DNA from: Haplodiscus bocki | Taxonomy: Eukaryota | DNA: 64,000 nucleotides | Direction of reading: 5' to 3' | Assembly (NCBI GenBank): GCA_965655095.1 | Contig: OZ296653.1 | Span: forward strand, 25,172,001 to 25,236,000 | Shown here: one piece after another, positions 327-51,300 of the stretch | Layout: the number at the start of each line of letters is the position of its first letter | Position numbering within the stretch: the first letter of the stretch is position 1 | Program-made: the position numbers and the translations under genes | The notes under the pieces: model-generated | Told to the model about the DNA's origin: nothing | Seen by the model: the letters and a program-made list of their open reading frames with translations, nothing else | Databases searched by the model: none

Positions 327-3300
327 CTAAAACACAAAACAATGCATCATGCAAAAAGCCTCACAGCGAAAAAAATCATTCAATATCATGGAAAGCATTT
401 GGCCGACGCAAACCGAGGTGACAATGGCAACTGCTTTCAATGCATATTTGCCCGCATATTCAACCGAAATTGAAAAATTTCGTACGTATTGCATACTTTA
501 TTATGATGTGCATGGCAAGTTTCAATAAAAACTTCCAGAATTTTTAGCGAAACTGGACTCAAAATTTGTTCATTTCTACAGAAAGATAATGCACTTCTAC
601 TATATATTCTCCGGAAAAAGCGATGCTTTTCGACAAATTTATCGCACTTGGCGACAATATGGAAACATAGGACTGCTGATCAAAAATTTGTTGAACAACA
701 GTATATTTTTTCAAAAAAAAGAAACCTGGTTTACAGATGTTGAATTTTTGGCCGGCTATGAGTTCGATTCGAGATTTGGGAATCTGTTCACAAAACCACC
801 AGCCCCACCCAACTAAATACGTATCCACCTCTCCAAGACGAGGCTGGCCAAGAAGCAGGGTGTTTCAGAAAATTTTTAAAAACCGAGAAGGTTTGGTGCG
901 TCTTTTGTGCGCCGATGAATCTAGAATAGAATCAGACGGTTTTACAGTGGGTCGCTTATCCTCAACACAGCAGGGCCTCGTGACTCATGGCGCTGTTCTG
1001 TCTAAAGTCTCTAATTCCCTCAAATAAACTCGTTAAAACACAAACAACAATTAATACTCTTTAAAAAAACTAATGAAAATCAATTATACCTTCAATGAAG
1101 TAATATAAACTTCCAGTACTTCGAATATAACAGAATAACATCAAAATTTCAACTTTGTCCGATTTCGTGATCAAGCCCAAAAACTGATTTCAGTGGTGAC
1201 ACCTGGAGACGTCGAAAGTGCGTTATTTTCTCTTTTTAAGTCACACACATACTGGCTAACTATTTCAGGGAGACATGGATCGAGTATCAGAATTTAATTC
1301 TTTAATTCACAGATTCGTTTGTGATTTTTGCATTGCAAATTGAGCTTTAAAACATCTAAGTGTTATAGAGAATTTCCAGAACAATGAACACCTCACACAT
1401 CTCACAATTATAACTTAAAAACCTCATATCTCATCAAGGGAAATACTTACCGAAAATCGCATCAACAGTTTCGTGTATGAAGGAGAATTGGAAACAAAAG
1501 AGTACAGATTCAGTAAAATTGGCCCATTCTCTGCAAAGGGAAGACAACAGGTTTAGCCAAGTTCTATTGGAAATGGATTTTGACAAAATTTGAAACGGGA
1601 TTATTCGAGGCGGGGGAAGATATCACAAATCCTTTCACCAGATTGGCGTTAAGTGTCTTGAGAGTAATCATGCCGAATTTGAACAACATCGGGTTGATTC
1701 TGGGCAAGAGGAGAACAGGTTCTGCTAGGTTGGGGTTTTAGCGAGTTTTCGGAATTTGTTCAATTTTGAAACCCTGTTTTTCGGCACAGGGAAAGATATC
1801 AAAAGTCTGGTCCACAGTTTTTCGTAATACCTCCTCGAAATCAGATTGGCTGAGTATTAGGGATAATTTTGAGCGGGAGGGGGAGAGCAAATTCTACAAA
1901 AAGCTTAATTTTTCCAAAAACCGCTACTTTTGCCACTTTTTGGGCCATCAGTTTTTCACGCAGTTACTTGGTTGGATAAATTTTATATCGAATGACAGCT
2001 CACAGTCCCACCTTAGCAGACTAAAAATCTCTACTAGCTACCTTTTGTAAAATTCGAATTTGTGCACCAGCTTCTGTTGCACTCAACTTGAAAAAAAATC
2101 CGCCCTTGAGTACGCTCTACAACCTATTTCATTCGGTGTCGTTCCTATTTGCCGAACAACTGCTTTAAAGTACGAGCTAAAACTAACAAACAACCGGCAA
2201 AGACGGTAGGAACCACATATCCTCACATACCCCTCATTAAAATTAAACTATCATGCCGCATAGTTGCCGTTGGAACCTCGTTAAAGATGCGTTCTTAGCA
2301 AAAATTCCTACTGAATGTGTTCTATATCACATGGACTATACTTTCCCATTCCGAAAAAAAATCGGATATTTGCAAGAACCCTAGATTTTTGGTCACGAAA
2401 AGGCATTAAAAAACCATTTTATTCACATTCTACAGTAAAATCTGTTGCTTTTTCCAATTCTTAGAAATTTCGTTTTCTTTTTCTCACTAAAAAACCCTGT
2501 TTTCGTACGTTTTTAAGACACCCTACTAACTCATTCACATTCTACCGCAAAATTTCCACACATTGGTCATGAAAAATTTCAAAGTCAGTCAAAATTTCAT
2601 CAAACATTAATTTGCAAGTATATGTTAAACAAGGCGTCCGGTTAACTCCGGGAAATTTTTCACCTTCCAATTTACAAAACCTTGAAATGCCCCGTTATTC
2701 GGACCAAAAATTGTCCAAAATTGCATCAATAATCGATCTTTTTTTTTCGAAAGAGAACCTAAATTTTTGCAAAACAAAAACTATTTTTTGAGAAAGACCA
2801 TCATGCTAGATGCATTCTACGGTAGTAATATATAATTCATTTTCTTAACAAGAATTGACAAAAAAGAGAAACGACATTAGCCACTGAATAATTTTCCTTT
2901 CCATATACATATGGAGGTGGAAAATGGAGAAAAAACGCACTTTTGGAGTGGAAGATTTTCTTCCATATTTAAAAATGGGCGGAAAATGAAACCGCAAAAT
3001 TCTTATTAGTTCTCATTAAAATTAAACAGCTCGAGGGATAATTTCCATTTTCTGAACCCAATTGCGCTCCCCGCGCTATGGGTTTAAAATTAAAGCAATT
3101 CAACTAAATGATCATCATCGGACTTGAATTTGTAATGAGCATCTTGGTGTTTCTTGCAACACAAGGACATCGGCACCTCTTAAAACTTCACTTCCCTTTC
3201 AATATCTCTTTTAGGGAGTGATTTCTTCCCATTAACAAACTAAAGGATAACGTATCTAGTTCTCATCTTCGTTCATCAAACCCGCCTCCTTTTTCTTCAA

Positions 3301-6300
3301 TATTCAGACAGATTTTGTCTGCAAAGGAGACAAAATTCACAGATCTGAATGTCTAAAGTAGTGCGCAACTCAACTATTTTCATGACACAACTTCCGTTTA
3401 GCTAAAAAAACTCAAGCACATTTTTGAGGGTTTTGAGTAGTATAGGAAGGGGGCTTTAGAGCCACTTATGACTCTTTCCATATTAGGACGTGTCGTTAGA
3501 GCCACTTATTGCTCCTCAATCTTAATACGTTACCAACTCCCAGTTTAACCTCATGACAGCTTTGACAGGTTATCTAGTTTAACTTTCTGACAGATTTCAA
3601 GCCACTTATTGCTCCTCAATCTTAAGACGTTACCAACTCCTAGTTTAACCTTATGACAGCTTTGACAGCTTATCTAGTTTAACTTTCTGACAGATTTCAA
3701 ACCTTGAAGCCAAGATTTCGCTGTGGTTCAAATATCGAATATTATACCAATACTGATGAAAATGTTCAAGCCTCATCATATTCTGAATTAATTCCTTAAG
3801 GGAATCCAAAATTTACCGAAACGAATTTCAAGAATTTGACCAATTTGAATAAATCAGAGCGCATTTTGCCTCAAATTTCAAAAATTGAGCTCAAATAGAG
3901 GAACATTGAAAAAAATTCACGAATTGAAATAGATTATACTAGCAAACAGTTCTGCCGGATCGGCAAATCGAACATTTCAATCGGTTCAATTCTTTTTAAT
4001 GATACGTTTTTTCAGTCACTGTCATCACGCGCAATGAATGAAGCAGGTGAGTGAAATTGGCGGACGATTCGACGATCTCACTCGCGTACTTCAATCGGCA
4101 GGATCGTCGCGACGTGAAAGCACAGTCACTGAGTTTCATTTACTTGCTTTTTGTTGGCTCGCTATTTTCACTGCTGACTCCGGTCTTTCAGTAATGACGT
4201 GAAAAAATTTTGATAGTTTTGAAAGCTGAGACACGGTTCAATCTCTCCATTTTTATAGGATTCTTTGAAAAATGTACGAATTCATTATATACTGCAATTT
4301 CAACCTCAATTTCGACAAGGAGTTTTTATATAGCTTACGATACTGAAACGTTTTAAGAATCCACTATTCTTTTTCAATGTTCCTCAGCAAAATGATTCGA
4401 TGTGACCATTGCCAAAAAGTAATCACATCGAAACGCACTTTGTATCAGCATATTCGCCAAAAACACAATAAAGTCGCCAAAAACACAATAAAGTCGCTAA
4501 AAACACAATAAAGAGCCAACATTGCATCTCCGGAAATTCGTTTGTGGTCATTGCAATCAAAATCTCTCTTCTTCCTTCAACCTTCTTCGCCACGTTCGAA
4601 ATAGTCATATATTAACTGGAAATTTCAAATGTCTTTCCTGTTTTATTGTATTTGGATGCGCTGAGTTGCTCGAAAGTCATGAAAAACAAATTCATTTACA
4701 AGCCTCCCCGTCTGCTAATTTTCAACGCGCTGTGTCCGATCACAACCTGCAAGCTTCTTGTGTTGAAACTTCGATCAATGATACTTTCAAGGTTTTCAGA
4801 GTAAACTTGGAACCAGAAAACGTGGAACCTTTCCAATTTCTAACCTCCAGTGAGGAGGGTATCAAATCATTTGTCAACGAAAAACTACCTTTTAACGGGT
4901 CGAACAGAGTTGGGATAACTATACATGTTAAACTGTGCAAGCCGTTGGAGGAGGAACGTGTTACTGTGCACTTTCATTCACCAATGGAGCGTGTTGCGCA
5001 TGAGTTAGTCCAAGACGATTTTATCAACATAACTGATGCAATAATTTCACAATTAAATGTGTATTGCTCTGGTGGCTCAGGATGGGTCGTAAAAACCCTA
5101 AAAACTTTGGAGATCAGGATAGCAGGCCCCTTCAAAGGAACAGCATCATCTTTTGCCCCTTCAAAGGAACAGCATCATCTTTTATCGAGACCCCAGCTGA
5201 ACTCAAAAACGTATACCGAAGTTTGCTCAACATAAAGAATAAAGATGAGTTCTGCTTTCTTTATTCTGTACTTGCTGGCTTATTTTCTCACAAAAAGCAT
5301 GTTGAGGGACGCTCTACTTATTCGCCGTACATGGACCAGCTTGTCTATAAACAATCTGATTTTCCAATGAGTTTAAGCAAAATTCCACGTTTTGAGGAAC
5401 TAAATAACGTTTCGATATCTGTTTATCGATTCGAACAAGGGGGGCTCCTGAATGTTTTTTATAGCAAAAAACCGAAAATGCCAACGAAAAGTGAAACTGT
5501 TTCTGCTTGTTGACCATGACAAAACACACTATTGCTTGATAAAGAACTTCTCGAACCTTATGCACCATCTGACTCGATCTTCGTCGAAAAGAGTTGGAGG
5601 CCCAAGAACTCGCTTCTGCGGCAACTGTATGCAATCAATTGTGAAACACAACTTTAGCAATCACGTTCAATTTTGTGAGCACCACAAACCGCTGGAAATA
5701 AAAATGCCAGGCAATAACAAAAAGCTGACTTTCGAAAACTGGCAAAAAACGCAATTAAATCCTTTTGTTGTACATGCCGGTCTAGAGGCAATTGATGTGG
5801 CTTCTGATGGTGCTGGTGAAAACAATATTCCAAACACAATCGAAATTGAACGACAATATCCTGCTAGCTTCGGAGCTATATTGATTAACTCCAAATGTAA
5901 GTGTTTTGCATAGCTTGTGGAACCTATAACTTGGCTGTTCTGAACTGCTATTTTTCAAATCAAATCATGTGGTGGGTTTTTGAAGTTTTGCGTTTTTTGT
6001 TTCAGCACAAATAATTGAGAAATCGGCTTCTTATCGGGGCGCAGATTGTATTTCAAAGCTTATGGAAACTCCCCGCTCGTGGTTGAAATGGATGTACAGT
6101 GAAAAGCAAACCTTCAGTTGGGTTCAAATTTCTGCCGCTGATCGTGAAAAACATCTCTCGCCAATGACAACCAATTGTTGCATATGTGGAGATTCAGTTA
6201 CTCAATCCGAGCGTGCTTTTCATCACTGTCAATTAACTGGTAAAGTTTTCAGAGTGGCCCATTCCTCCTTCAACTCAAAAGCGAGATCAACAAGTTATCT

Positions 6301-9300
6301 GCCAATATTTTTCCATAATCTTTCACGTTACGATGCTCATCACATTATCAAAAATCTGACTCTTCTCTCGGGTGAAAATTTGTCTGCCATTTCTCGAACC
6401 GACGAAACGTATACTTCTTTTAGCGTTTCTGTTCCTGTCGGTTCTTATTATACAAAGAATCATAAAAATGCAACATTTATAAACAACCTCAGATTTCTCG
6501 ACAGTTTCCAGTTCATGTCTCAAAGTTTAGACTCTAGCGAAAACTTTGAAAACTGATGACTTTTCGTTATTAAAGACGTTTTTTCCTTCGACACATCCGA
6601 CAGTGGATTGGAAGTTACTCACTGGAAAAGGCCATTTTGCATAGTCCTATTTGGACTCATTCGCAAAGTTCGAAAGACTTTTACCCAATTATGGAGACGA
6701 CTGGAAAAACACCTTGACTGGCAACCTTGACATTTCCAAGGCAGACGTTGCCCAGGCCTTCAAAATTTACACCTTGTTTGGTTGTCGCAACTTGGGCGAT
6801 TACCATGATGTGTATTTACGGACTGATGTTTTAATTCTAGCTGATGCTTTTGAGAAAGTCCGGCAAGTTTGTATGAAAGTGTACAAACTAGATTCAGTTC
6901 CCTTCTCAGCCCCCAACCTAAGCTGGGACGCAATGCTAATTACTAATCGCGTCGATTTGGGTCTTTTGAGTGATATTGACAAGTTGCTGTTTTTTGAGAG
7001 AGGAATTCGTTGAGGTATTAAGGAAATTGGTGAGCTACGCCATTTCCGAGCTAATAATAGAGATTTGGATGTCTTTGATGAATCAAAAGCAAATGTTTAC
7101 GGTGCGTTTTTTGATGTTACTTTTCTTTATGCCGGTACCATGCAACAAACTTTACCTGTGGACAGTTATTATTGGAATGAAACAATTACATTGAGACAAC
7201 TCCTTGCTACCAGCGACGATTCAGTTGTTGGATTTTTTGGAGAAGTCAATAGCACCTATCCGTCTCCTCTGCATGACTCTCTCAATGATTTGCCTCTGGC
7301 ACCCGAAAAGATATTGATTCAAAAGTCATGGTTATCTCCCTACGCACAACCTTTCAATGTCAAATTACGAAGTCACGGTCGAGAAAAACTAGTTGAGACA
7401 TTATTGGATAAGATTCGTTACATTTGCCACTACCGAAACCTTAAATTTTGCGTCAATCAGGGTCTCAAAGTTCGAAAGCTTCATCGTGTAATTCAATTCC
7501 GTCAAAGCAAATGGCAAGGTGATTACATTTCGAAAAATAATATTATGAGGAAGCAAGCAAATGATTTCGAGAAATATTTCTATGAATTATTGAGCAATGC
7601 TTGTTCCGGAAAGACTATGAAAAACTTCCGAAATCGAAGAGAAATTCTTTTTGTCAACAACGAAAAACAAGCTGAGAAATCGTTGTTAAAACCTACATTC
7701 AAATCTTATCAAATTATTCATGATGGATTGGTCTCCGTTTCCTTCGCCCCGAGTAAGATTGTTTGGTCAAAGCCTACCCCTGTGGGAGCGTCCATACTTG
7801 ATTTGTCTAAACTGAGCCTCTACAAGTTCCACTACGATGAAATGAAACCACGTTTTGGTGACAAAAGAAAAGTTGGCTACAAAGACACGGACTCACTTTT
7901 GTATAGAGTAGAGACTGAAAACTTATACTCAGAAATGGCCACCTTCAAGCACCTCTTGGACTTGTCAGATTACCCCGAAGAGCATTTTCTACATGACAAA
8001 ACGAATAAAAAGGTTCCGCTCATGATGACAGATGAATTGCAGGGGAAAGTATTGAGTGAAGTTGTTTGCCTCCAATTGAAACTTTATAGTATTCAATTTG
8101 AAGGCGGTGTCAAACGGAGTGCAAAAGGAGTACAAAAAACTGTCAAAAAACCCTAAATCACGATTTGTTTAAAGAATGTTTGCTGAGCAAAGGAAAAGTG
8201 AAACGGTTCATGACCCAACTTAGATCTAAAAACCATCAAATTGTTGTCAGTCGTGTTTACAAAGTAGCCCTGAGCAGTTATGATGACAAACGGTATCTAC
8301 TCAATGACGGCATTCATTCGCCCGGATACGGACACTACAGAATTAAGGGACAGCCATGCAGCAATGGTTAATTTCTTTTTCACATTTCCTGGTTACGTTC
8401 ACGATCTAAAACCCTGACAACCTTTTCTTTGTTTCTCAGAATCCGACGTTTCCTCGCTGCTCAGTCAAAACGACGATAAAAGTGATAATGAAAGTTCCTA
8501 CTACTCCAACAATGCTCGAAGTGACACAGAAGTAGATGACAGCCAACGCGCAACTCCGCCAACTTTACACAATTTCCTGCAACATCACGACTGTTCTTGT
8601 TAGAAAGCTTCAATTGCTCTTTCTCATCATTGGTTTTCATTTTCCTGGAATTATAAAATCGTGAATTTTAGCGCCTCCGGACCCTGGTTTCCACCAATCT
8701 CACTACTCAGACGTCAATAATGATGAGCATTGCATTGAATGGGACCGCTTCGATGAAGTGGTCGCAGAAGCTGAACAAGTTGAACCCAGCAATACGTGTC
8801 CCTTCATAGACTGGGAGGCGTTACAGTCGATTGATGATGATGTTGATGAAAATTCCCATGGTAGCACTAGCAACAATGATACTGCAGCGTCCGCCAATAA
8901 AAGATGTAAACTTGTTCTCTATAGTGATAGCAGTGACACTGACAATTAGTATGAAAATTTATTCATCGTAATTACTCTGAGTATAACAAACTTTATATCC
9001 AAAATTACATTTACAGTGTATATGGAAATAACGTACAATGTCAATCTCTGAAACAGTTGTTAGTTTGGAAAGGAAACGGTTGGTGACAGATTGTATTTTT
9101 GATGTGAAGCTTTTACTTCTTTTACAAAAGAAAGTACAGAGGTTTTCAGCAAAGTGAATTTCATTTAGGTAGTGGGCCATAAACAAACAGTACAGTCCGC
9201 ATAAGTTAGAACTCGGATTTTGCATAGGGAAAGTTATCTCAAATGCTCTGATCGTTCTCGATGAAAGGGCAGTTAATCGTTTTTGTATTTTTCTGTAACT

Positions 9301-12300
9301 TTTGATGGGCTCAACGAGAGGATCCCATAGGAAAATCGTTATTATTGCATCATTAGACGCTAAAGCCTGCTTTCTTGAAGGATCAATTAAAATGTATGAC
9401 AGCAAAAACCAATGCTGTCCCGCTTCGGTCTGGGCTGCACTGTTTACAATTTGATAGATAAATTTTTGGCCAGTTGTCACAGCAGAGTTTAGTATTTCCT
9501 CAAGATCTCGACCCGAAAAAAAGTTGTCAGATGAAGCCACACCAATAAATTTTTTTTGAAAAGTTTGGGACAGCAGTTATCCGCCAATTGAATTAAACTG
9601 AAAGTATCCATTGACCAACGCCGAATTCTTCGAAATATTTCGAGAATTGTCAATAAAAAATTGACTGAATCTTTCTCCAATCAGAAATAACTCGACTGCC
9701 TCAGGTAAAGCTTTGCTGAAAGACAATTTCAACGTTTTTCCTGCTCCCGTCAATTCGGGAAAAAATGTCAAACTTTTGCTAGCTTCTCTTGTTGATGTTA
9801 GATCGAATACTAGGTAGAAATGGTTATCCTGATAGTCTTCCAAGGTAATGCCGTTGCCGCCACGTTCGAATCCCAAAGCTGTAAAGGTATTGTAAAACAG
9901 GCGTGTGTCGTTTGATGTATCCAATGGTGTCCCTGCTATTGGTAAACCGTTTCCTCTCAGTAACTCGATCTTTCGCAGGTCAAATTTTTCAGAACTAAAA
10001 GGCGTTGAAGCCGTCGTTGTTCCGCGGAAAAAACGATTCCGAACCATGCACATTGTTAAGCGACGAAAGGGTTCAGTGCCAAAGATGTTTTCTCTTACAC
10101 AGCAATTTTATCTGGATTGTATCATAAAGCTTTTTGTTGAATTTTCTATGTACGGATATACCGCATAACTCTTTGTGAGCGCCCGTTCAATGCAAAGTTT
10201 CACGGTATCCGACAAGACAATCTTGTTTACAAACAGGGACGCTTTGTCAATTACAACAACAGGCGGATTTTTATCAAGACTTTTAACTAATCTGCATCCA
10301 AATCGGTCAAAGTTTCCAAAGTGCAAAGGTTGGGCGATCGATAGAGGGGTAAGTGAAGTGTCACGCCTGGCAGTAGTAACCGCTCGCAATCCAAAAAGTC
10401 AATATGTGGAGCTCCATAGAGGTAAAGTGAGCACTTACCATATTCAGCAAATTTTTTCATGATTATGTTTATCACTTCTAGATTTTTTCTTTGTTTCGTC
10501 GATAACGGTAGCCTTGGCAAACGGTCCATGTCCTTTTGCTAAGTGGGTCGGTTGTTAATTCTGTTTCAACAAAGGCGGTGTGATGGTAGTTGTTGTTACT
10601 ACTGGATATCAATTTGCCGTTCAGAATTCAACGTGTGAAAACAAAGAGTGTAGCGTGTTGTTGGAAAAAAGTAAATTGTCCGGCGTTGCAGCATCTTTTC
10701 CACCTGGGTTGTATAATTTTACGTCCAATCCCAAACAAATTCGGTTCAAATCAATGCAGTTTTTATTGTCTGATGTGACAAAAAAATCTAGCTAAGGCCC
10801 TTTGCAACCTACATGAGGAAAAACTTCTTGATCGAAGGATCCTTCGTAATTTATCAGTACGGTTGGTCTCTCAAAAAAGTCAAGAGCGCTGTGGGTTACG
10901 TGATATGCAATTTCACTTGAGGTTCCAAAATACGTTTTGGTTGCTACTGCTGGTATTCATCACTCCTTCCTTCGTTATGTGATGCTTGCTAATCAGGTTC
11001 TTTACCAGTTGTGGAACGCCACACCAGAGAGTATATCGGACCGACTTCTCGCAAAATTTTTCCGATTAATGACTTCTTCCAATTTATTGTCCCGTGTTCG
11101 CCGCCCAGACGAAGGCCCGCTCCCCGCCCGTTGCCTGTCGGCTCCATCGCTCGTCACTCGCCCGCCCGGCCGCTGCCCGCCCGCTCCGTCCCGCCGCGGC
11201 GTGCCAAGCGGTCGCACAACCTCAGATACACTTACAATTGTTTTTTTTTAAGTAAATGCGCGAGCAATAACTCTTTTTGAAGAAGCGGCGGCGGCGGAGG
11301 TGGTTGAAGCAATGGTTTTTGAAGCGCTTTTTTTCAATGTTTCTCCCAGCACAGTCTTTGGTCTTTTCCTACCCGAGATGACGTTTGAGATTTCCGGCAC
11401 AAATGACGATAACAAGTTCTTTCCAAATTCTTTGGCCACAGGCATCGCGTATTGTTTTAGGAGAGGGATCGCCACGTGGCCCATACGCATGGCGAATGCT
11501 CCCAATCCTCCAGATCCATACTGACGCGCCGGCCCGCGGAACGTAACTGCATTGGGAGTTCCAATCGTCTTTTGCCCCCTTTGATTGGCAAAGTGAGCAT
11601 CCATCAATCTGTCTCGTTTCATTTTTCTCCGTGTCTCTTCTTCCAACGACCACAGTACAGGAGATGCTCTTTTATGACTGACTCTTGTTACAGATTGTCA
11701 ACGGACAATTGTTGTTGCTGATAGTCAGATGGATGAATGGAAGCTGCCTACAAGGAGCATGACTGCTTCATCTAACTTCCAATTTAGAGAATGAGGAAAT
11801 TGACAAAGTTTAGAAAGAAGCACGTGGAGCTTAAGAAGGATGACAACAACCACAAAGAAAGCAAAAAAACTCGTGGGCTGTTGCGCTAGAGTTTAATTTG
11901 TTTGTCTATATTGCAAAGTCAAGTTTGTTCTTCCTCGACTCAAAAAATGAATGAGACCGCCCGCTTCATTTCGAAGAGCAATGGTTAATGAATGAATTGA
12001 AGACTTTATCACTCGACGCCATTGAATTCTGGTGAACGTTCGCTGTCTTTTGTTGTCACCAAGTGGTACGGCTCTGACTAGTGCTGTTTGTGTCTCCGAG
12101 TATTTCGTTTTGAACCAAATCACAGTAAACTAACATAGTGTGACATCCTGCTGTTAGATCAACAGGATAGTTACCAATTTGCTCGCTCATTTGGCCGCGT
12201 CTTTCAACTTTTTTTGGTTTCTTGCAGTCTTGCGGCACCTCCAAAATCATGACTTCCTTCAGGCTGTTTGGCGTCATTATTTGTTTGGCTACAGTCAACT

Positions 12301-15300
12301 AAGTAATCCAAACCGAGTATGTTTCTCAAATCTTCGGAAACGGCTTTGAGCCGGATTTTTTTTCGTTTCTTTATTTGAAGTCGTGCTGAATTTGACGTGC
12401 AGTAACTGGGATTCTTCGCAAATGTCCCAGCTAAGTGGCAAATGACTGATATCCCATCCAACACTGCTGCAGAGGTTGTCACACATGGACTGGAGGATAG
12501 AGGTGACCGAACTGTAACAGCCTTTCGTTATAAAAAAATACTTCTCTGGAGGAAATTTTTCTAAAAGCGTAGAACTGTTCCGTTTGAGCAGGTTCCTGGG
12601 AACATACATGGAAATCATTCCGTTACCAAAACGCGGCCGCTCAACAATAGTTTCTTGTGTTGATGTATCACGGTTTTGTTTATCTCGATTGAGTTGATAG
12701 CTGAACAGACCTTCTGTCACGTTTTCAATCAATCCGGGCCATGACAACTCCACCAAGGAAACCTCCCATGTACCGTAGAGGACCAGGGATTGTGGCAGTA
12801 AGGTTGTGAATTTAGCGAGCGTGTTATCGGGAAACGTTGACATGGAAGCGTTAGAGACCAAGTTAATGGTGAAACTTTGCTGTTGACTCATCTTTCACTT
12901 TATAGCCAAGTATTGTGTGCTCTGCTCGTTGTCTTTCTCGAATCGTACTAGCTCGCTCTCGTAGAATTTTCCTCGAATCAACTGATTATTGCAATCTCTT
13001 AGAGTAAGTGGGGGGATTCAGTGTTTCCACTGCTGCAACCTGGAATACCTCCTCAGTAATTTGGATGCGATATCCACGATGCAAAAAGATCTATTTCGCG
13101 ACGAATGCGAACGTTCTGTCCGAGTTTGAACTTTGGTTTTTTGATGGCGTTACAATTTTGTAAGGATACTAGAAACGATTCGTCAAGAGTTTTTCACCTG
13201 GTTTGGCGCCAGCTTTGTGACTTGATTGATTCTGGAATTGATGATGTCAACAAATGCTTGTAATTGTTCATGATACACTTCAGTGTTGTTTCCGTGGAGA
13301 TATTTGAAAATCAGAGCTTTGATTGATCTAATGCTCTTCTCAGGAAACACCGATTTGGTTTAACTACATGTCTAATAGAAATGGATTCCCGATTGTTGAC
13401 AAAAATTGGCAAACTCGCGTGCAAATTCCCGGCCTTGATCTACCCAAAATTTTTCTGGGTCTGGTGATACAGGCCTCGATCCACGGCAGAACCGAGGTTG
13501 CAAAAGTGGTGGACCCCATTTATTGCCCTCAATGACGTCAATTAGAGCTTGTCGACAGGCTGCTGCTGTTTTTCATTTAAGTGGAACAACCCACAAGAAT
13601 CGGCTGAGTGTATCCACTGCAGCAAAAAGAAACGTTATTCCCTGATTGAATTCTGAGAGCTGCTGCATATCAGGCAAGTCAATTGACCAGATTTCATTGA
13701 GTCGGTAACTTTGAACTTTTAGTCTTGTGAAGTTTCTGCAAGCTTGTTTAAATATTGTGTAGGTTTCACTTTTTTGTAGGAAATTGTCACCTTGTTTAAA
13801 GGTGCAATTTGACTCCTTCTTCAGGGAACTCTGGCTTCCAAAAGAGGCAGGATTTTGACAGGACGTGTATATGTTTTGTAGCTTACTGTATGCTATCGTC
13901 TTTTGAGTCGCTGGAACCAAACGACGCGTTGTTGAACACTTTGAACACAAGAAATTCTCCCCTCTATATTTTGAGTACTCGGTTACAGTTGTCAAACCAC
14001 TGCATTTGTAATGAACCCAACCGCAAACGTTGCACCAAATTGAGGGTTGTTTAGGCGATCCTTTTCCGAGAGCCTTTTGACAGTTGCCACAAGTGTATTT
14101 TTTTGCGTTTGCCTTTCGTCGTTTAACCATGATAAACTAAAACTACCGCCCTCTTCTTGGGATGATTTTGACAGCTGTGGTTGTTTACTTCAGCATAGAC
14201 GCAGCCATTTGGCGTGTTCATTATTGGGTCCAGGATATGATTTGAATGGGCTTTCATCGTCTTCGTTTGAGTCACTTTTCATTTTTGATGCCACTTTTTT
14301 AGCAAAAGTGTTTGCGAGAAGGTATCCTGGTATACGCAAACGTCTCACCAAGTCCAGGCTTAAATCGTCAATCTTTTTAGTAGGTACTTGAATATCGGAA
14401 AGAAAATCTAAAACTGCCAATCCAGTGTCTGTGACGTGTAGGCAGATTCTCCCATAAATGTTGTTGATAGAAACATGCTCACTGTTGCTGATTTTTCTAA
14501 GGATTTGTCGGGCTCGCTCGACCTTGCCACCACTCAAACCGCAAGACAAAAGGTCCAACATAACATTTTGATTTCACAGCTGTCGCTGCGTCCTCAGTTC
14601 GTTTGGCGTCAGAGAGAGTGCTCGTTGTTGCTTTGCCGAACCTTGTCTTCAAATTCATTTGCGCACATTCTGATGCTCTTGGAAAGTCACAAGGAGTATC
14701 GATTGAGTTTTCTAGATTACCTTTTGCACAAATTTCCAGACTCGTACTTCTAGTGTCAATCGGGTTCACGAAATTGTGGTTGTCATTTGAGATTTTGCCC
14801 GCTACAAGCGATGAGTATTCATCGAGTGTTATAAGGATGAATTCTTTTGTCCTACCACTCGATGGCATGGCGTACTTCTAAATGACGTGAAATCGAAGGT
14901 TGTATCAAAGCGAGCAGTTTCAATCCGTGGCTAGCTGACAAAATTTGCATTAATCCCACTTTCTTGTTACATAAAATTTCTATCAATCTTCTGTGCCTCT
15001 CAAGTTTTTTCTGGGAAACATTCTGAGCCATTGCAATATGCCCACTGACAATGTTCAAAAGACAGTTACAGAAAAATTTTATATTTTCTTCTGAACAATG
15101 TAAAAGATACAAACGCCTCATGATTGGTTTCATGTTAACGAAAAATTCAAACATATAAAGCTCTTAATGACTCATTGGTCAAGTTTTCTCTAGTATAGCT
15201 TGATGATACAAAGAAATCCGATGGTCCAGTTCGTGAGCAGTTGGAGCAGAATTTTAGTTTAGCATCCGTGTGCGAATCAAAATCAATCATCAAATGACCG

Positions 15301-18300
15301 AAAGGGGCCTGTGTTGCCTTTTTATATGCGTCGATTAGTAGTTGTCGATCTCCCATTTGTCGGCCGAGCACACCTATCTGTTCCAAGTCACGGGGCTCTT
15401 GAACAAAATCATCTGTGTAACATTCAATCGATTGTCTTTGAAAGCTTTGATTGTTGAAGAAGATTATGCTTCAGTGCAATCAAATGGATATTTCGATGTC
15501 TTACCGCAACTACCAAGTTTAGAAAGTATTCATCTTCGCAAGCTTGCTGATACAAATCGTCAATTACCACAAGTGTTCTCAGTTTTTGAGCTTCGCATTT
15601 TTCAACTGCTGACCAGTGAAGGCCCTGATGAAACTCAATGGAATGCTTTTTTGACTGACGCAGTTGACCAAGAGGGTATCGAAATCTTTCTGGTAATGAT
15701 TATATAGGTAAACAATTTTATCAAAACATGGTTGGAAAATTTTGCTTTGATTCTTTAACATATTCGATACTAATTGCGTTTTGCCGCTCCCACAGGGTCC
15801 TACAATGGAAATGAAGCAATGAGGGTCGGTGCGAATGCGCTTATCCATTGTTTTCCTTTTGGTACCAAGTAACCGATGCACGTTGACAAAATTGCGATAA
15901 TCCCAGTTTGCAATGAACTCAGCGAAAGCTAGGTAGGCAATGGAGAAGATTACAGTCGCACCAATCATGAAGTAATGAAAAAAAGTACTAAAAAGGAGCG
16001 GTTACATTCAATCTTGTCCGAACAGCAGCCGCAATTGAGCTGAAATGGAGGTCTTTCTGTTTCATTACCATCAAAGATGAAATCATTTAAGTTTACGTGA
16101 TCTGCCAAATCTACGGCTACAGGCTTGATTGTTGATTCCTCAGTCACTTGCGATGCTAATGTCGTAGTGTCTTTTTTCATTGTGATAAGTGGTTCTTGAA
16201 TGCGTATAAGTTGAATATGATTTGAATTGTTTGGTTTAGTCTTGCTAGATCAGTTAAGGTCAGCCGGATATTCGATTGCTTACCATTGCTATTTTGCTCA
16301 ATCAAAATTTTGGGATTTTGCGTTGGAAGAGAGGCCTTCAGCAAGACTCTCTCGGGAATAGGTAATGAGATGGTAATCGCAGGCAACTCCAGTGCAAATG
16401 ACATCGAGCTCGCCAATTTTTGTAATGATTAGCATGCAAACTGCTCGTAAAGTGTTCCGTGGAACAACTTCAGTTAAAGCCAGTACGCTAAACCAGATAA
16501 ACGTCCAAGCAGCATGTTATCCGCAAGCAGCGGTTTTTCTGTAACTGCGTAAACATAACCCGGACCTAAATCGAAATTACTCTTCATGAATCCAAACGCG
16601 TCGTGAAAAACCGCATGCATACGGAAAAGTTTGAAATAATTCAAGCAACGATCCATGTAGCTTCTGCCGGGACCTATTAGCCCGCCATAGGGAGCGAAAT
16701 CGTTTATATCATTTAGATTTATGTTTTTATCTAGACAGTAGCAAACTGCCAGAAACGCGTTTTCACTTTCCGGATTTCTCGAAAAAAGATAATTTACTTG
16801 GTCGAAATTGTCTTTCAATTGTTGTACAATAACTAACTCTCGCATGATCTCTACGTATCCGAAAAACCAACTGCTTTTGTCCAGTTTTCAATTGATAATG
16901 AATTGGCTACACAAATTGAGCATTGTCATTCATGAAAGAAAACAAATTAGTATCAAAGTTGAAATCTTTTCTCTCATTACCCTCGAAAACAGAGTCTGAA
17001 GCTTCGGTGCATTCATTACTTTGGCACTGGGCATTGGAAAATCCAAGATCCACTTTGAGAACACTATTATGGTGAGCAATGTTGATGTTCCCGAAACCAC
17101 GTTGAAGCAAATTGATAAAATCAATCACACAATCTTTGAAAATTGAGTTGGACTTCTGCAGCTCCGGCAATTTTCTGCACAGATAAAATAGTTTCTCGGC
17201 GTCTTCATTCTCGTCGAACTCACTGTAACAAGATCGCTGTAATTACCACACGTTTTCAAATTTGCATCCCAAGTCTTTTATTGATTCAAATTGCAACATC
17301 GATTTCATTCTCGCGCCATGTATGAAGAGTCGGTTGCCTCCATAACTTGCTTCTCTCTTTGTACAGTTCTCCGGATACGACACTGTAAACAACTTGACAA
17401 AACTGTTTCGAATTTTTAAAGGTGGTTTTGCTCTAGGGATATTTTCACTGATGCTTTCTTTTATGAAGTTCTCGGCTCCCACGAAAGCTTTCAAGTTGAG
17501 GAAAATGTGGTAATTCTCTCCAGCAAAGTTCGAACAAACATATTCTGTTTCAGAAAAAAGTTCCTGTAATGTGGCATCGTATGGTGTATTCACAATGTGT
17601 GCTGCTTAACAGGGTTTTTAGGAAGCGACAAAAGCTTTTGGGCAGTTTTGGTTGCTGAAACTCATTCGCATACCTAACAATTTTCGAAGGAGGCTCTTCA
17701 TGCTCTTCCCATTCGCCTTCTTCAGTAGATGAGAAAACCAAGTAATGGAATTGTGATGGAGCACACTTGTCATCGCGAATTTTCACAGTAGAATGGTCAG
17801 TGATTTCACTTATCTCTTATCAGGTTACTTGTCAGGTTATGCAATTCCGAAATTTCCGTTTCTATGGTTTTTTTCCCAAATCAAATGACGTTGTTGCTAG
17901 CACAGTTCCATTGCCCTTCCCGTGGTTTTGGTTTTTGTCCGAAAACAACGTGCTTTGGTTGTTATACTGTGCTAGCTGCGATCTGGTTTAACATCAAATT
18001 GGTCTCTTCTGTGGGAAGTCGATTTTTTCGACTCCTCACAGTTGCAATTAACAATTATTTTTCATTCTTTGCGTTTCCCCTGGTTTACGATCTTTGGAAA
18101 TTATCGAATGCAAACATGGTGTGGATCAAATTTTGAAAGTTAGTTTTGCATATTTAACAGAAATTTAACTTTAAACTCTTTGACATCGTTCAAAATATGC
18201 CAATCGTACTTCATTTTGTTTTTGTTCAAACAACTTCCATAGCTGTCGCAAAGTTAGACTAGATGAGCTGTTGGAGCTGTCATAAAGTTAAACTAGGAGT

Positions 18301-21300
18301 TGGTAACGTATTAAGATTGAGGAGCAATAATTGGCTCTAAAGGCACGTCCTCATATGGAAAGAGTCATAAAAGGCTCTAAACCCCCCTTCCTATACTACT
18401 GTTTTGTGATTATTTTGAAGAATTCGATAAGAAGGCTTTCCCCGGCTCACCAACTATGGCCACCGTATCGTGATCTCAATGTTTGAGCAACCCGGATAAA
18501 AAGCTATTTTAAGTCCCTGTTAAGGTTTCCGTCCTTTTTAAAGCACCTGTTCTCGGCAAAATTTAAAAAATCCTACACGGCTCATAGAAAACCTCTATAC
18601 ATTCATGGGCAGACCAAGAACCACTAAGCCACACGCGCTTTGATACCTCCTATGTGCCGGAAGCCTCTGAGCAGTTCTTGTCTAGTTTCACATATCCATT
18701 CCTTTACAAAGATGAGTACTAACGTTCATTTTGAGAGAAAGATTTGCAAGTTGATGGACTCCATAAAAGCACAGCTCTATCCTTTAGAGTCTCGACGGAC
18801 CCGCAGGACTTTGTGTCATTGACAGAAGCACTTCTGAGATGAGGAATCGCAGCTTGGAACTGGGCACCGATGTTGATTGCAGGCTCCAGGACCTCTTCTT
18901 CCGATTTATCCTCCACACTGAAGCTGCCCGACACACCTAAACACAAATCATAACTCATAAAACGCATATCGCCCAACAAATTGAATTCAGGAATGGGAAC
19001 GGCCTGTGGTATCCGGTGCGGCATAGAGCACCATGCCCTCTCTCAAACGGCGGAGGAAAAACCGTATATGGCAAACACCGAGCATTGCTCTTTCTCCGTG
19101 CAAAAACAGTAATAAAATTGAGAAACTTGACATAAGTTCTGTGATTTTCAACTTGTCGTAGCATAGCATAGGTGGACTAAAAACTAATTTTCCCATTGTA
19201 CATGTCGAAAGCCACTGGAAGCGTTATTGTTCCAAAAAATATAAATACTCATCTAATAGATAAAGAAATGCTGAAAACAGGTTTTTTTTAACTTGCTGTA
19301 TACGACGCTGTATATAGTTTATGGCAGCGTAAAAACTGTATAAGGTGACGTTAGCTGTATACAGCAAATTACCCATCAGTAGTATAGGGATTCACATGGT
19401 TTTTCGCGGGTCAATCGTTTCGCGGTTGAATCTTTAGTCTCCTTCAATCTTTTCGCAGACTGTTAAATAAAGGAAAGTAAAATGATCACAGAATTGTCCA
19501 CGGCGAAGTTATGAAAACTATTTAACATAGCAGATGTCTAGACATAAATTATTTACAAGCCAAGATTCACCTGCTACTGATTTAGGATTCACATGCGAAA
19601 AGATTGTCATAATCCTAAGATTGGGGTGCAAAAACCATGTGAATACCTATACTACTCCCATCCCTAATGATATTTTAATCCTTCCACCCGTTATATCAAT
19701 GCTAATATTTGAAATTGCATGTGAAAACTACGGCCTGTGAATAGTGCCTGCTTAAGTCAATCATGCAAAAAATGAAGAAAGCTTCTTCAAAAATAATTGC
19801 CGCAGTTTCTTGGTGAAAGCAAACTTGAAAGAAAATAGCGACAATTCTGGGGGTGAAGAGACGTCTAATAGGGAAGGCTAATTTCAAGAATAATGGCAAC
19901 ATTTCTGGGGAAAGACGCAGTCTTATGGGCAGAGCAAATTTTAGGGAAAATAGCGATATTTGCAACGAAAAGTGCCAAGTAAAAATCATAGCACACGCTC
20001 CTAAGGAAAACTTCCGCCCCAGGAAACACTTTTATGAATGCATGGTACTCAAAATAATCAATTCAATAACTACAGCACTAACTGCTTCGTTTCAAAGGTT
20101 TGTTGACAGAGGAAATGGGCGTGGTCGCCGCGAACTGAGAGGCAAAGAGACCACTGCCATTGCGTAAGGGACAAAGCATTGGAGGTGGCGTGTAAGGCAC
20201 AGCCGTCGCAGGTCCAGATGAATCTCCTCCCCCAATGCCTCCGGCTGAGGGACAGTCCCCGGTAGAGAGCCCTGTTTCTTTCTTTGATCCTCCTATACTT
20301 GGCGCAGAAGATGAACTTATCTTCAGATTTGATGAAAGTCGGCCCAGACCTGATTTGCCCTTGGCTATGAAGTCGTGTCTGAAGCATACATACAAACCGT
20401 CTAGTGATTACTTTCATCTAACCGTTTAAAATCTGGCGTGAAAAGTTCGCAAACTAGGCTGAACAGGGAGCATTGGTAGTTCAATGTTCTTTAAGGTCAC
20501 CTACGTGACCCAAAATATTCCTCTTCATATATTCAACAATGAATATCAATTACTCGGAAGGTAAATTTATAGCATTCACCTGATGCTTGATTCTAAATAC
20601 TGTATGCGTTTTCTTTTCTTTTCATATCTCACGTTACAAAAACATTACAAGATCGTTTTTAGCTTTTCAAAAAGTATGTTCAAACAAAAGAAGCACAAAC
20701 CTTGGTGACCTGAGCCAACTCTGGTACACACCAGTTCCTCCACTGCCAGTAGACGTGCCGAGATAGTCTCGTGCTATATTCAAAGACGGAGGTTTTGATT
20801 TACGTTTTATGCTTTGGTAATTGGGTAACGAGGATCGAGGATCGTGGGGAATCTTGAAGATGCCTCCTTCGGATGGTGAGTCATCCTGTGAACTGGATTC
20901 GCTGGTTGTGGTCGCTGAATGATGTCTTGGGGGCCCCACGGCTGACGGCGAGCTAACAAGGTCAGCGGAGTCACTGTCGATTGAAAGCGACGCTTCCGTT
21001 TTACGATGTTTAGCTACAGCAGAAAGATTTTCGTCAAACACCACTGCTGACGTCGCCACTCTTCCCATCCCATTATTTACCCCCGTAGAAGCCGTTAAAG
21101 GGGACACCCCAGGAGAAGAAGTTCCACCCGGAGACTGTCTGATAGGACTTCTAATGGTTCCTTTAGGTGTCGTTGATATGTTTTGATTACCTAAACAGCC
21201 AAACTTACCAGTGTTTCCAAAATATTAGTGAATTTTAAATGTTAATACCGTATTAACACTCATTAGCTCCAATTACAGAAATTTTACCCAAGGCGTATTG

Positions 21301-33300: not shown

Positions 33301-36300
33301 AATAACCGCCTCGGGTAGTATCACTCATTTTCAGTTGAAGCTGGATGCAGAAGTCAAGTATGCTTTCTAATATGGTTTAATCTTGCAAATGAAACACAGT
33401 GGTGAAACGGAACTTCGCAACACACTGACTTGTCAGTTGAAATTAAAGATAAAGTTGACATATTAAAGGTCGCGAGACATTTGAACCTTGATCGGATACA
33501 TGATTGACACTTTTAGAAATACAGCACCATGTCTCTATCGAAAGGTTGCTCGAAAAAGTTGAATTGAGACAAGTCTTCGTCACGGTGTCTAATACTGGAA
33601 TGGTTAATCTGTCAATCATGTCTTTACAACATGCTATTTTTTAGCCCAATTTTCAAAGACTTTGCAGTTAACAACGCAAATATGAACAATGCTACGTGTC
33701 CCAAAAAAAACGTTACTTGTGAAAAATCTATAGCTCTCAAAATGGCTAATATTACTCAACAGACTTGAAAACCTCTTCAAAAACTTCTTTTCTCACTTGT
33801 CAATCATGAGGCCTGTGACTCAATTGAAACATTAAAAAGAAAGTGGTATATTATTGGTCAACTTAGTGTAAACAACATTCTAATTGTTTACCTACATTTT
33901 CACAATTTCAGATTCAGGGCATGTGTCAAATTTGATGATTGACAGGCGGTATGTGCCGATTTGAAAGAAGTTCCGGTGTCTTGTTTACTAATATTAACCA
34001 CTTTGAATTTTGAGAATTCGAAATTTTTACATGTAACGTTTTTTGGGAACACCTAATACACTTTCCACAATGCCTTGTATTCAAAACATTACTACGTGAA
34101 ACCATACATTTTAGGACGCTGACGTTCATTTTTCAGACCGTTTAAACTCTATGAATAGACTCTCTCATGACGTCATAAACTGCAAGTTTTGGACAGGTTG
34201 AAAAAAACTATGCATAAGCTAGTTTGCAATGCACATTCTTCCTTTCAGTCAAAATGTTTACAAAAATGAAAAAAAAAAACGATTGAAGGAAGCGTCAAAC
34301 TTACAAGTGGTCTTGACGCTTGAACCTCTTGCCGCATAGTTTGCATGCAAATCTTCTCAAATGACTGTGAATCAACTTGTGTTTGGTCAGCGCAGACGAG
34401 GATCCGAACTTCTTCTGACAGTGAGGGCAACACAGATGCTGCTGCTGTTGCTGCACTTGCGATAGCCTCTGCAAAAAGGAAGCTGCAACAGCCGAGGTCG
34501 GGTAACTTGCTACCAACGCAGCTGCCGGTGACGACAAAAGTCTCTTAGCCGCGAGATGGTTCACCCAAGGTAAAAGTAGATTCGGGTTGGTCGAATTTGG
34601 TTCGATAGGGGCGCTGCCACTTCCGGTCGAACTTAATCCAGCAGGGGCAGGGTGAGTCGAAACCCATTTCAGGCCAGGTATAGGTACTTTGTAGGGTATT
34701 GAGGTAGTGGGGGAGGATAGTCCGTGGTAGAAGGCATTGAGGTTGTTAGCATTCAAGGGCAGTGAAGGGTTCCACAGTGAAGTTGCGACGTCTGTGAGTG
34801 AAGGGTTCGGGCTTCTTTGAGTGAGATGCGGAGGTGCTGGGGACACTAGTTGATTAGCTACAGTTGGCGGTGGTAAGTTAAACGGAAATCTCGGATTGGG
34901 CCCAAGTTTCAATTCACCTGCAAACAGAGGTCCATGATGTGAAACAAAAAAAAACTAGCAAACAGAAAAGCTCAAAAATGCTTATCAATGTACGTCAAGT
35001 ATTTAAAATCAAAAGCCACCACAAACTGTATTTGAACATTTGCTGAACACAGTAACTTGAAACTGCCTGTGTATTGGAAGCCGAATGTGTAAGCGACTGT
35101 TTGAGAAATGAACATGTAGCAAGCAAATCTGTTACTAATCTAATGTTCTCGCAATTGGAACAGAGAAATGCAACTTCGTCTAACTTAAGATAATGGAGCT
35201 AGCCAACTCCTCATCGACTAGCAGGCGCAAATCTTTAGCCGAAGTTAATGTCTTCAAGCAAATGAAATACAAGAAGAATCAAATCATCCCTAAAAGCGAT
35301 CAATAGTAGGTTTGGCTTGAGAGAATAGGAAAAGCGATCATTTTACTAACAAACACTTGCTCCCATATAAAGAATAAGAAGAAAGATTTTGCTTCTATGA
35401 TAATCTTCTTTCTCAATGATTAACTCCAATTCAAGATGAATCTCAGTAGGAGCATATCACATGAACAAAATCAGACATAAATACACGCATAAGCTTTTGA
35501 TTTTGTAAAGAACCTGGCACAGAAAACTCAACGAAATCTGGTTTTATCATCACTCCGTACTTTTGAGAAGAATATATTTCTTCACATTGATGATTTTACA
35601 CATGTTGAGCTGTACTTCGCACACACGAGCGATGGATGGAGATGAGAAACGCTAAAAACTAACTGCCTACCGTTGAAATTGCTAACTTGATTCTGAAACT
35701 TACCGTTGGAAATTTTGACCAAAAAAAAAGACGTTGACACTGGATGGCCGCAAATCAAAACTAAGACACGCCATGAAGGATGCTTTGCTTCGTTAATTAT
35801 TTTTTTGCTGGTTTGTTGAATGATCACTAGATGTTCGGCATCTATTACATAGCTTTCGAGGAAAAAATACTCACCAAATGGCGCAAACTTGTTAAGAACA
35901 TCAGACTAAAATTAGGACTTCCGTCTGAAAAAAAAACGAGAGAGTACACCCTTGCTAATCCGCAGATGCTCCAAAATGCGGTGTTTACAATGAGCACTGG
36001 ATGACCGCAATTCCAGCGGTAGCCTTCGGTAAAAGAACAAAAAAGAAAACGCAATTAAAAAGAGATCAAACAATCAGTCAAAACAATTTCCTAACCACAT
36101 GAAACTAGACATCCCTGTTACTCCACAGTCGAGACTTTCCACATTAATGGCTTCTAAACGAGTGCTGTTGGGTGAGAAAGAAAGCAAGTGGAAAAATTTC
36201 AAGTATCACCGACAAGTCAAGCCAATTCGCTGTAAGAGAATGATGCGACACATCATGTTTCTTTGGAGACTTTCGATAATGCACACTTTTGAGTGACCAC

Positions 36301-48300: not shown

Positions 48301-51300
48301 CTCTCAGAGATATTCCGCAGAAACTCAACTCTGCATGTAATTGAATCAAGGCTGCAATGACCCAATTCGACCAAGAGTCAGAATGAAAAACACTTTCAAA
48401 GAACAACGCAATTAGAAACATTTTTAATTTTTCAATCAACTTCTCAAGGATGTTCAAAAACAGACTATTCTTGCAACTCAACAAAAAACACAGAGGAAAA
48501 AGTTCGAAAAAAACGACGCCAATTTTCCACTGGCTGAAATTAACACTTTTAACTAACAACGAAAGTAAAAAATGAACATCGACTTTAGAATTTCTAATCA
48601 AGATTTTTCGCACAGATGTCCGACACGAGCGATCACGAATAGCTCAAAAATCTGTTGAATTGAAATGAAACCAAACGGCTGGCCAACGCACGAATATTTT
48701 CCGCCCTCTCAAATTGCCAAAGATACTTGTCACAAGAATGAAAGCGTTTTTCCAAAAAAACTCTCCAGCAAAATTTGATAATTTTTCCTAACTTAAAAAT
48801 TTTCTGAATTCTCCATAGAACCATCAATTCAGGTTGAAAAAAGACATTTCAATGAAATAGTATCATTTTATACACATCCTACAGCAAAACTGCCACGTTT
48901 ATCAATTATCAATGTTGAAGAAATTCAAGCTTTTCTAAAAGAGCCATTGATTTCCCTTCAAAAATATTCTTCGTACGATTTGAGAAATCTAAAGACGTCA
49001 GTACAACTCGACAACAAATTTTCTATAACTTGGTGACAGAAAAAACTTGAATTCATTGGAAACTTTCGATCAGACATTATCAATTGGCAACTAATCCTAC
49101 AAAAAAAACGTTCGCGTTGAGTGAATGAATTTCCTTCCATACTATTTATGGGCGGAAAAGAATAAAAACTATTGAAACGAAAGAAGCAAGCCTGAACACC
49201 AACGTCAATTAAAGGCCCAAAATGAACGAAATCTGTTCTGCTGCAACTTTGTCGGATTAGTCGCAATCTGCAGTTATGTACAGGCGGAAAAGTGACGGCT
49301 TATCCAGATTCCAAAACGCTGTCTTATCACAGATGTAGCAGAGAGGGGCAGCTATGCTTCACGATTACTGGCGACACACAACAGACCTCCTGCTGAGTTA
49401 TCGGAACAATTAGGACGCAATGGTCAAACCAAAACTAACGAAAGCCAGCAAGATTGACATTTAACTTATTGAGCATTAAACTAAAGGAAGCTACCCTGTC
49501 AGTGGATGAAACTTTCGATTTTTGGTCGGACGCACATTAACCAACATGTAATCATTAGTCACCGAGAAGTTTTGACAAATATAGCATCATATTCCAAGAA
49601 AAACTTGGACGAAAAAAAAGCACTCGTCCAATCTTAAGAACACATGTCAAGATTTTTGATTGGACGAGAGCAATGAGCACACACTATGGCACGCTGCAAA
49701 ACCTCTAAGTACTAGTAGTCGACGAAAAGCTACATGGACAAATGCGATGATGATGAGTATTCAAGAGAAATGCTTCTGAAGAAAAACCAAAGTAAAAGTT
49801 CCCTAGATGTGTCGCTTACAAGCCAAAGTATTTTGCTATTTTTCAAGAGTCAGACCATCTCGGCTCCACATGGAGTTCTCTGGCAGCAACTCGTTTATTT
49901 AGCCATGAAGTGACAACATCTGAACAGTAGTAATAAAAACACTTGCGACGACAGACAAGTACAACCGTCATCAATTGTTCAAACAAAAGCCAACAACGTT
50001 CGCGGTAGAAGCAGAAAAAAGAGCATCCGAGCTTTTTACCAAAAGTTCCGGCAGCGAGTAGTTGAGTCAGCACTGGATGGACCCAATCGGACCAATATTC
50101 AAGAGGGAAAACATTCAACGAACGAGAAAATATATCCACCCAAAGCGAAAAGGAACTCTGAAAATTTTTGGGAGGACAATAGTGTCCCCTTTAACCATTA
50201 TATCATTTTCCTGCCAATTAGGATAAAAGAATTCAAAATAACCCAGGCTTTTCACTTTTAAAAGCAGAAAAACTGGGAAGCACGAAAAAAACTCTTCTCT
50301 TCTGCGCGCTCTCACCGCTACTATGATGGTCCGTATGGTCCCTCCTGTACTCCCAGGCACCTTTGCTGAAAAAATCAAAACTTTCAAATGTAGCACAAAG
50401 ATCCTATTTTTCGACGAGTTCGCAAATTGTCGTACAAAAAGCGTCAAAAAAACAAAAGCGAAGTGACATTTGAAAAACTTCGTGAATAGGAAACTGTCCG
50501 GAGACATAACAAATAACGATTTTTCGAAGTCTTAAAACTAATCATGAAAAGTTCATTCGGAGCTCCACAACAGATTATCTCAAATGGTCAAAAGCTGGAG
50601 AAACCGATGTCAGCGTAATCCGTAAGGCTCCAGATAGTTTTTCGTAATTCTGACTTGTTTGCGCTTTTCCAAAAAATTCAATCTACATAGGGAGGTACAG
50701 CCACCCTACATTTGTTTGCGCTTTTCCAAAAAATTCAATCAACATAGGGAGGTACAGCCACCCTACATTTTTCCGACATCATTAGGACAGCAAAATTGCC
50801 GGAAACGGAGGGTGACGGCCAACCAACAGTTGGCCTGAGTTGCTTTGTCTGTTTTTCAACAAGGAAGCGTCAAAGATTAATTATTTTCCCGAAAACAAAC
50901 ATGAAAAAAAAGATGGCCTTTGATTCAAAAAAAGGCTTCCCGATATTTTTCGGCATAGGAAACGGTGATGACGCATTTTTGTACCAAAATAAAATGCCTG
51001 AAAAACCTCAAAAAATGTATGAGAGCTCTTTTCCGTTGAGAGATAAATGGTCTCGAGAAATTTAGTTACACTTAAGGGGGTCTCAATTACTTCTGTCATT
51101 AAATTTTTCTCATATTGTGCAAGAGGACACTTTGACCGTATTTTGCATTATTTCTGGTAAAAAACAACCTGAACAGAAAATCCCGAAATGTTGTGGAAGA
51201 AGTTCCTCGACTCGAAAGACGTTCGTTCATTTTACAGGGGAAAATATTGGTACTTTGGCCATACGCTTCAGCCCCAATGGACCTACCCAATTTTCCGAGA

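Follow-up and report, generated by a model that had tools for sequence, protein, structure and literature searches.

A 64,000-nt stretch of the Haplodiscus bocki genome (contig OZ296653.1, positions 25,172,001 to 25,236,000 of the forward strand), referred to here as the window, carries a decayed Maverick/Polinton element whose DNA polymerase gene, pPolB, is interrupted by three GT..AG segments. We hold with high confidence that these segments are old GT-AG introns shared across polymerase families, that active elements likely depend on the spliceosome, and that their polymerase ends in a conserved acidic tail. An earlier note on this DNA had proposed three spliceosomal introns in the gene and a lineage reliant on host splicing. 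The first proposal agrees with the sibling copies, which inherit the segments with conserved ends and diverging interiors; from the shared positions, the phase, and the empty sites across families we infer the second. The window's own copy is dead and yields no polymerase, spliced or unspliced; statements on splicing concern active ancestors.

Intron positions in siblings and divergent families

Each of the three segments in the window (coordinates in Table 1) starts with GT, ends with AG, and interrupts a codon after its first base (phase 1), as had been claimed. Each also holds an in-frame stop (5911-5913, 8369-8371, and 8601-8603), and its length accounts for the shift in frame towards the open frame that follows. 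The earlier observation that introns 2 and 3 are both 73 nt long is true of this copy, where it is a coincidence; amongst siblings, the lengths are 104-112 nt for intron 1, 66-75 nt for intron 2, and 71-77 nt for intron 3, and introns 2 and 3 show no relation in their interiors (z -1.0). The note was silent on some five frameshifts and two in-frame stops in pPolB, none of which is an intron. Exon 1 is shifted near 4460-4510, at 5126-5183 (a 29-bp duplication), and at ~5460-5510, while exon 2 is shifted near 6530-6556 and 8130-8156 and stopped at 6642-6644 and 7011-7013. A candidate intron in the 5' leader, with a pyrimidine tract and an AG just before the ATG at 4392, was rejected, as other families do not have it.

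The segments present a GT donor, a pyrimidine tract, a YAG acceptor, and host-like signals, as do U2-type introns, and their T content is 0.44 compared with 0.23-0.29 in the exons. The likeness of the GTTA donors to those of the host, pointed out previously, is seen in the neighboring ELM2 gene, where GTTAGT occupies two inferred donors. Among 20 junctions in host chaperonin genes, GTTAG was also the top-scoring donor at 4, one of which reads GTTAGA, the donor of intron 3; this estimate comes from a scoring heuristic that left several junctions ambiguous.

Each of two DNA searches listed 40 copies that are 86-94% identical to the window's sequence, of which the best 20 (intron 1) and the best 30 (introns 2 and 3) were examined, window included; the host genome searched comprised 1.5 billion bases. 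All examined siblings have the three segments. The GT and AG were kept in 18/20 and 18/20 copies for intron 1, 28/30 and 29/30 for intron 2, and 30/30 and 28/30 for intron 3, in line with the conservation expected by the earlier note. Counting as shared polymorphic any column with two letters, each in at least three copies, we found 7/109, 9/72, and 6/73 such columns in the introns (6-12%), compared to 12/411 and 5/201 in exon 2, 4/156 in exon 3, and 9/273 in exon 4 (2.5-3.5%). Shared indels occurred only in introns and were mostly not multiples of three. By this combination of low polymorphism and intron-only indels, exons 3 and 4 resemble coding sequence in their behavior.

To reach more divergent families, 40 loci were hand-picked from 150 protein matches and joined with the window, giving 41 loci, 37 of which could be resolved at intron 1. 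An insert of 66-123 nt lies between the anchors in 35/37 resolved loci, and the site is empty in 2/37. Amongst the 35 insert-bearing loci, the GT is found at the exact base in 31 and the AG in 32, with GTTAGT (15), GTAAGT (10), and GTTGGT (4) as donors. Once the insert length is subtracted, the anchors are always 21 codons apart, which equals the spacing in the two empty loci. A search across the intron 1 site returned approximately 60 continuous matches; the 30 best, chosen for continuity from 231 matches and belonging to at least two families, measured exactly 63 nt in 30/30 cases. The 21-residue spacing recurs in 15/16 database proteins that match the anchor pattern. Between families, intron 1 interiors show no relation (z -2.1 to 2.7, 21 pairs), and the 120 exon bases that follow are related (z 3.8 to 19.6). 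Families with an empty site co-occur with intron-bearing families in one genome. Together with the splice sites kept in the siblings, this agreement is far beyond chance. Database calls of the relatives P0001, P0009, and P0138 start within intron 1. Intron 1 measures only 66-70 nt in one family (L088, L095, L102, L103).

Further downstream, a DPG motif was present in 35/41 loci and missing from 6/41. The AG of intron 3 is located exactly 8 nt before the D of this motif in 28/35 loci, one codon earlier in 5/35, and mutated in 2/35; the upstream acceptor, with the phase kept, characterizes one family (L084-L090). Families without intron 1 keep both tail introns. For intron 2, a phase-1 donor could be read by eye 28-55 nt past the polymerase motif YGHY in each family.

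The acidic tail of the polymerase

Exon 4 of twelve loci aligns on three motifs, DPG[FY], [IV][DE][WF]D, and [CF]PFI..EA. A profile built from this exon found 56 proteins among 1.84 billion, most of them called as short separate proteins. The polymerase end is continuous with the tail in P0233, P0238, P0240, and P0242. Likewise, 6/120 long homologues carry the tail continuous with DDKR..GH (P0010, P0014, P0019, P0074, P0017, and P0011), with P0011 continuous only by read-through of an intron-like stretch at intron 3. At least nine proteins thus hold polymerase and tail in one frame, which makes the tail a part of the polymerase in this clade. On the evidence of these relatives, the spliced, tailed form is very likely the product. 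The nearest named homologues, LOC142335839 and LOC142351740 of the acoel Convolutriloba macropyga, are uncharacterised automatic models from the sister clade of the window's family, and one automatic model ends in the same DPG / DWD / NPFIDDEA tail. The nearest named homologue being from an acoel, the host of the element is probably an acoel as well.

The earlier note had read the tail as one arm of a possible two-isoform switch, in which retention of intron 2 would give a normal short polymerase and splicing would add the tail. In a regulated switch of this kind, the host or the element would make the choice. We now consider such a switch improbable. The unspliced frame in the window's family does stop 10 codons past YGHY, 58/73 database homologues with the YGH motif end at most 15 residues after it, P0003 is cut at the place of intron 2 as a partly spliced transcript would be, and the predicted disorder of the tail would allow a short form to fold. 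However, the early stop is formed by the TAA of the GTTAA donor itself, which is in phase 1, and any phase-1 GTTAA or GTTAG donor gives a stop; without splicing, the frame of other families continues for 0-381 nt past YGHY and stops at no conserved place. Many of the short ends are frames cut at intron 2 (P0001-P0009 end in G, GK, GW, and similar), and the short YGH ends combine true ends, in distant relatives, with artefacts of this cut. In addition, every family examined has kept the exon 4 motifs, and relatives carry them fused to the polymerase.

Even less credible is the proposal that only intron 1 lies within the polymerase, which would end after YGHY, while exons 3 and 4 form a separate small gene or are non-coding. 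It would account for the short calls that make up most of the 56 tail-profile proteins, and the tail has no sequence match in Pfam or PDB. Yet these short calls begin in an intron-like leader compatible with the same intron 3 acceptor (27 of the 31 that could be scored), exon 4 has no conserved start codon in the aligned loci, and the continuous proteins described above tie the tail to the polymerase.

The predicted fold of P0014, a natural tailed relative, was confident for the polymerase, with residues 694-874 scoring below 50 in the predicted local distance difference test (pLDDT) and no docking of the tail, a region covered by only 12/117 alignment rows. This model fits a disordered tail. 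Viral contigs scanned with the tail profile and JGI metagenomes scanned with P0010 returned nothing. As described in the accessible part of one study, the tails of DNA polymerase alpha and Mcm2 bind histones via two aromatic residues eight apart beside an N-terminal helix (PMC6166128). The tail examined here would likewise be disordered, with aromatic residues conserved among acidic ones, whereas the aromatic spacing differs and neither sequence similarity nor a profile match connects the two; the likeness to the histone-binding tail of polymerase alpha is a lead only. As a tentative extension, to which we give a rather low probability, a C-terminal polymerase module of three acidic-aromatic motifs, common to a clade of animal Mavericks and masked from gene callers by two introns, might handle host histones or dock on a host nuclear factor in the manner of cellular polymerase alpha, in elements that gain and exactly lose introns via their own spliced RNA.

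History of the introns

Two quick trees of the polymerase core were computed, leaving out rows under 55-60% coverage. The families that lack intron 1 cluster with an intron-bearing one (94-96%), and P0003 clusters with the window's family (99-100%). The sister clade is mixed, with an intron-1-like leader in P0138 (P0011 cluster) and continuous sequence there in P0010 and P0012. P0003 runs through the intron 1 site without a break and is cut at intron 2, which would suit either an incompletely spliced RNA or DNA from a family that has no intron 1. The distribution is most simply read as an old intron 1 that was exactly lost more than once; repeated gain at one base and recombination between families are the alternatives.

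The least likely account of all, in which decay or introner/transposon insertion into dead copies produced the segments and their GT..AG ends arose by chance, finds some footing in the heavy decay of this copy and in the introners that populate dinoflagellate Polinton-like elements (PMC12166617, in the part consulted), but it is contradicted by a base and phase that stay constant across families whose proteins are 55-75% alike and whose intron interiors are unrelated, by three introns that are mutually unrelated (z -1.4 to 0), and by intron ends at which no target duplication or terminal repeat was seen. The comparison of introns with one another, which served as the introner test, showed no similarity, and no genome-wide search with the interiors alone was made; an ancient introner origin of the introns is possible.

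The mechanism that we favor for the shared introns starts from the inserts, with their ends, phase, common positions, diverged interiors, and exact empty sites, and from the last-exon motifs, which in relatives lie in one continuous protein with the polymerase. Active elements would be transcribed in the nucleus by host RNA polymerase II, and all three introns would be constitutively spliced. Intron 1 would be old and exactly lost more than once, or else gained more than once at one base; exact loss would require a spliced complementary DNA. The acidic-aromatic motifs, together with a basic patch resembling a nuclear import signal, might perhaps form a docking module for a host or element protein, with histones as one candidate.

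Several points weigh against old, shared, spliced introns and a tailed polymerase. Removal of the segments from RNA is something we infer from the DNA. Two of four sequencing runs of unrecorded kind, which belong to one study, showed no exact segment skip among the 15 of 71 joints displayed, which has no bearing on splicing. Retention of GT/AG in siblings is weak on its own, given that neutral decay of 6-12% spares most sites, and the argument therefore rests on the divergent families. Three copies in the family with the short intron 1 have a stop-free insert of 66 or 69 nt that the frame finder reads through. Intron 2 is located within an unalignable linker, where only the phase and the rough place are common to families, and its homology is consequently less strictly shown. 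An automatic two-intron search solved 15/41 loci and missed the window by the search's own thresholds; this over-strict solver was replaced by the anchor-based counts. Synonymous to nonsynonymous changes within the family, 2:2 in exon 3 and 4:3 in exon 4, are below what a test would need. Aligned with single relatives, exon 4 is only weakly similar to P0017 (E 0.004) and shows no similarity to the P0010 tail; the continuous database proteins may derive from transcripts or gene models and not from intron-free DNA, and the trees are quick ones.

The element, its setting, and related systems

The element at 3436-18400 is a Maverick/Polinton. It is 15 kb long, flanked on both sides by the 6-bp target-site duplication GTTTTG, and its termini are of the AGT type, which is a Maverick/Polinton trait. 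The window's pPolB matched PF03175 with 28.2 bits (cut-off 25.8) and has 978 homologues. No introns were found in the other core genes, each of which forms one frame in the seven further elements that were examined, so that the introns are confined to the polymerase. The capsid candidate had no Pfam, PDB, or named match. The start of the retroviral-type integrase (13900-14140, - strand) contains a cysteine pattern that we take to be PHD-finger-like, a possible chromatin reader.

Table 1. Features of the Maverick/Polinton in the window, with the exons and introns of pPolB.
Feature	Coordinates	Strand	Remarks
Whole Maverick/Polinton	3436..18400	.	decayed copy, AGTAGT ends; target-site duplication GTTTTG at 3430-3435 and 18401-18406
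Left terminal inverted repeat	3436..3693	+	holds 100-bp tandem duplication 3500-3699
pPolB exon 1	4392..5896	+	C2H2 zinc fingers, N-terminal region, start of exonuclease region
Intron 1	5897..6005	+	109 nt, phase 1, GTAAGT..TTTCAG
pPolB exon 2	6006..8366	+	YRG.D, exonuclease and polymerase domains up to DDKRY..YGHY (PF03175)
Intron 2	8367..8439	+	73 nt, phase 1, GTTAAT..TCTCAG
Exon 3	8440..8598	+	serine- and acid-rich linker, open frame, siblings without shared indels
Intron 3	8599..8671	+	73 nt, phase 1, GTTAGA..TTTTAG; acceptor 8 nt before D of DPG
Exon 4	8672..8949	+	acidic tail: DPG[FY], [IV][DE][WF]D, [CF]PFI..EA, basic patch; stop 8947-8949
Adenovirus-type cysteine protease gene	8959..9576	-	convergent with pPolB; C48/C5 E 0.002-0.007, below cut-off
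Broken gene, likely major capsid protein	9577..10960	-	relatives are single 455-456 aa frames; assigned by size and place only
Integrase gene	12930..14140	-	broken in window; rve PF00665 34.2 bits in a sibling's single frame aligning to the window
Packaging ATPase gene	15150..15850	-	broken in window; relative's single 233-aa frame: Pox_A32 E 8e-5, 22.6 bits, cut-off 22.8
Right terminal inverted repeat	18243..18400	-	88-89% complementary to left repeat

The Maverick sits in an intron (330-18722) that splits the ELM2 domain of a host gene on the - strand. The host exon at 18960-18723 matched Pfam ELM2 and has the donor GTTAGT; the next exon, at ~327-58, contains ELM2-end and SANT-like sequence, for which Pfam gave no match. 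The polymerase is antisense to this gene, and the remaining element genes are sense to it. Elsewhere in the window, a 279-bp element at 19378-19656 has a 6-bp flanking duplication and 27-nt inverted ends, starting AGTAGTATAGG, that resemble Maverick ends and recur at 40 or more related sites across the genome; it is likely a non-autonomous Maverick derivative. Eleven matches to its end, ~2.45 kb apart at G000:C6:2249357-2300950, suggest a tandem array. A host exon with C2H2 zinc fingers is present at 34301-34954 (- strand), and two copies of another repeat, ~80% alike and ~6 kb apart, occupy 50665-51440 and 56764-57468.

The following comparisons draw on the accessible parts of the cited papers. 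Vertebrate Mavericks resemble this element in their terminal inverted repeats, 6-bp target duplication, pPolB, integrase, ATPase, protease, and mostly decayed copies, and are described with intronless frames, without introns in intact elements; unlike them, the present element bears three inherited introns in pPolB, together with a tail exon (PMC8097293). Nematode Mavericks share the same core gene set and also have introns that travel inside the element, but those introns occur in host-derived cargo genes while the core genes are intronless; here, the introns are in the polymerase itself and in no other examined core gene (bioRxiv 10.1101/2022.07.12.499685). This element thus departs from the intronless core genes of the vertebrate and nematode descriptions, a trait that is descriptive and not defining. 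The only introns mentioned in the consulted part of a survey of nematode pPolB are group I introns (bioRxiv 10.1101/2023.08.22.554363), which cryptophyte elements also have (PMC12220804), and a study of Tetraselmis assumes viral genes without introns (PMC9356565). The eupolintoviral elements of dinoflagellates are similar to the present one in having spliceosomal introns inside Polinton-like elements with terminal repeats (PMC12166617). Their introners are young, repeated, and found in a protist (PMC12166617), whereas the introns described here are old, mutually unrelated, conserved in position, found in an animal, and accompanied by exact empty sites. In the literature searched, intron-split Maverick polymerases are described only for the dinoflagellate introners, and neither inherited spliceosomal introns nor such a tail are described in an animal Maverick polymerase; this search covered subscription journals thinly, with supplements and Repbase outside its scope.

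Maverick surveys count an element as intact if each of its genes forms one open frame, and take large inserts as decay (PMC8097293, in the part consulted). Such surveys truncate the polymerase of this lineage at both ends, with calls that start in intron 1 and stop in intron 2, and the tail surfaces in databases as dozens of orphan proteins. Reading the segments as introns uncovers a conserved polymerase tail with a testable partner, and occupied and empty intron sites within one genome provide a natural series for the study of intron gain and loss. For the biology of the family, the shared introns would imply that a virus-like element expresses a replication gene in the nucleus and depends on the spliceosome to do so.

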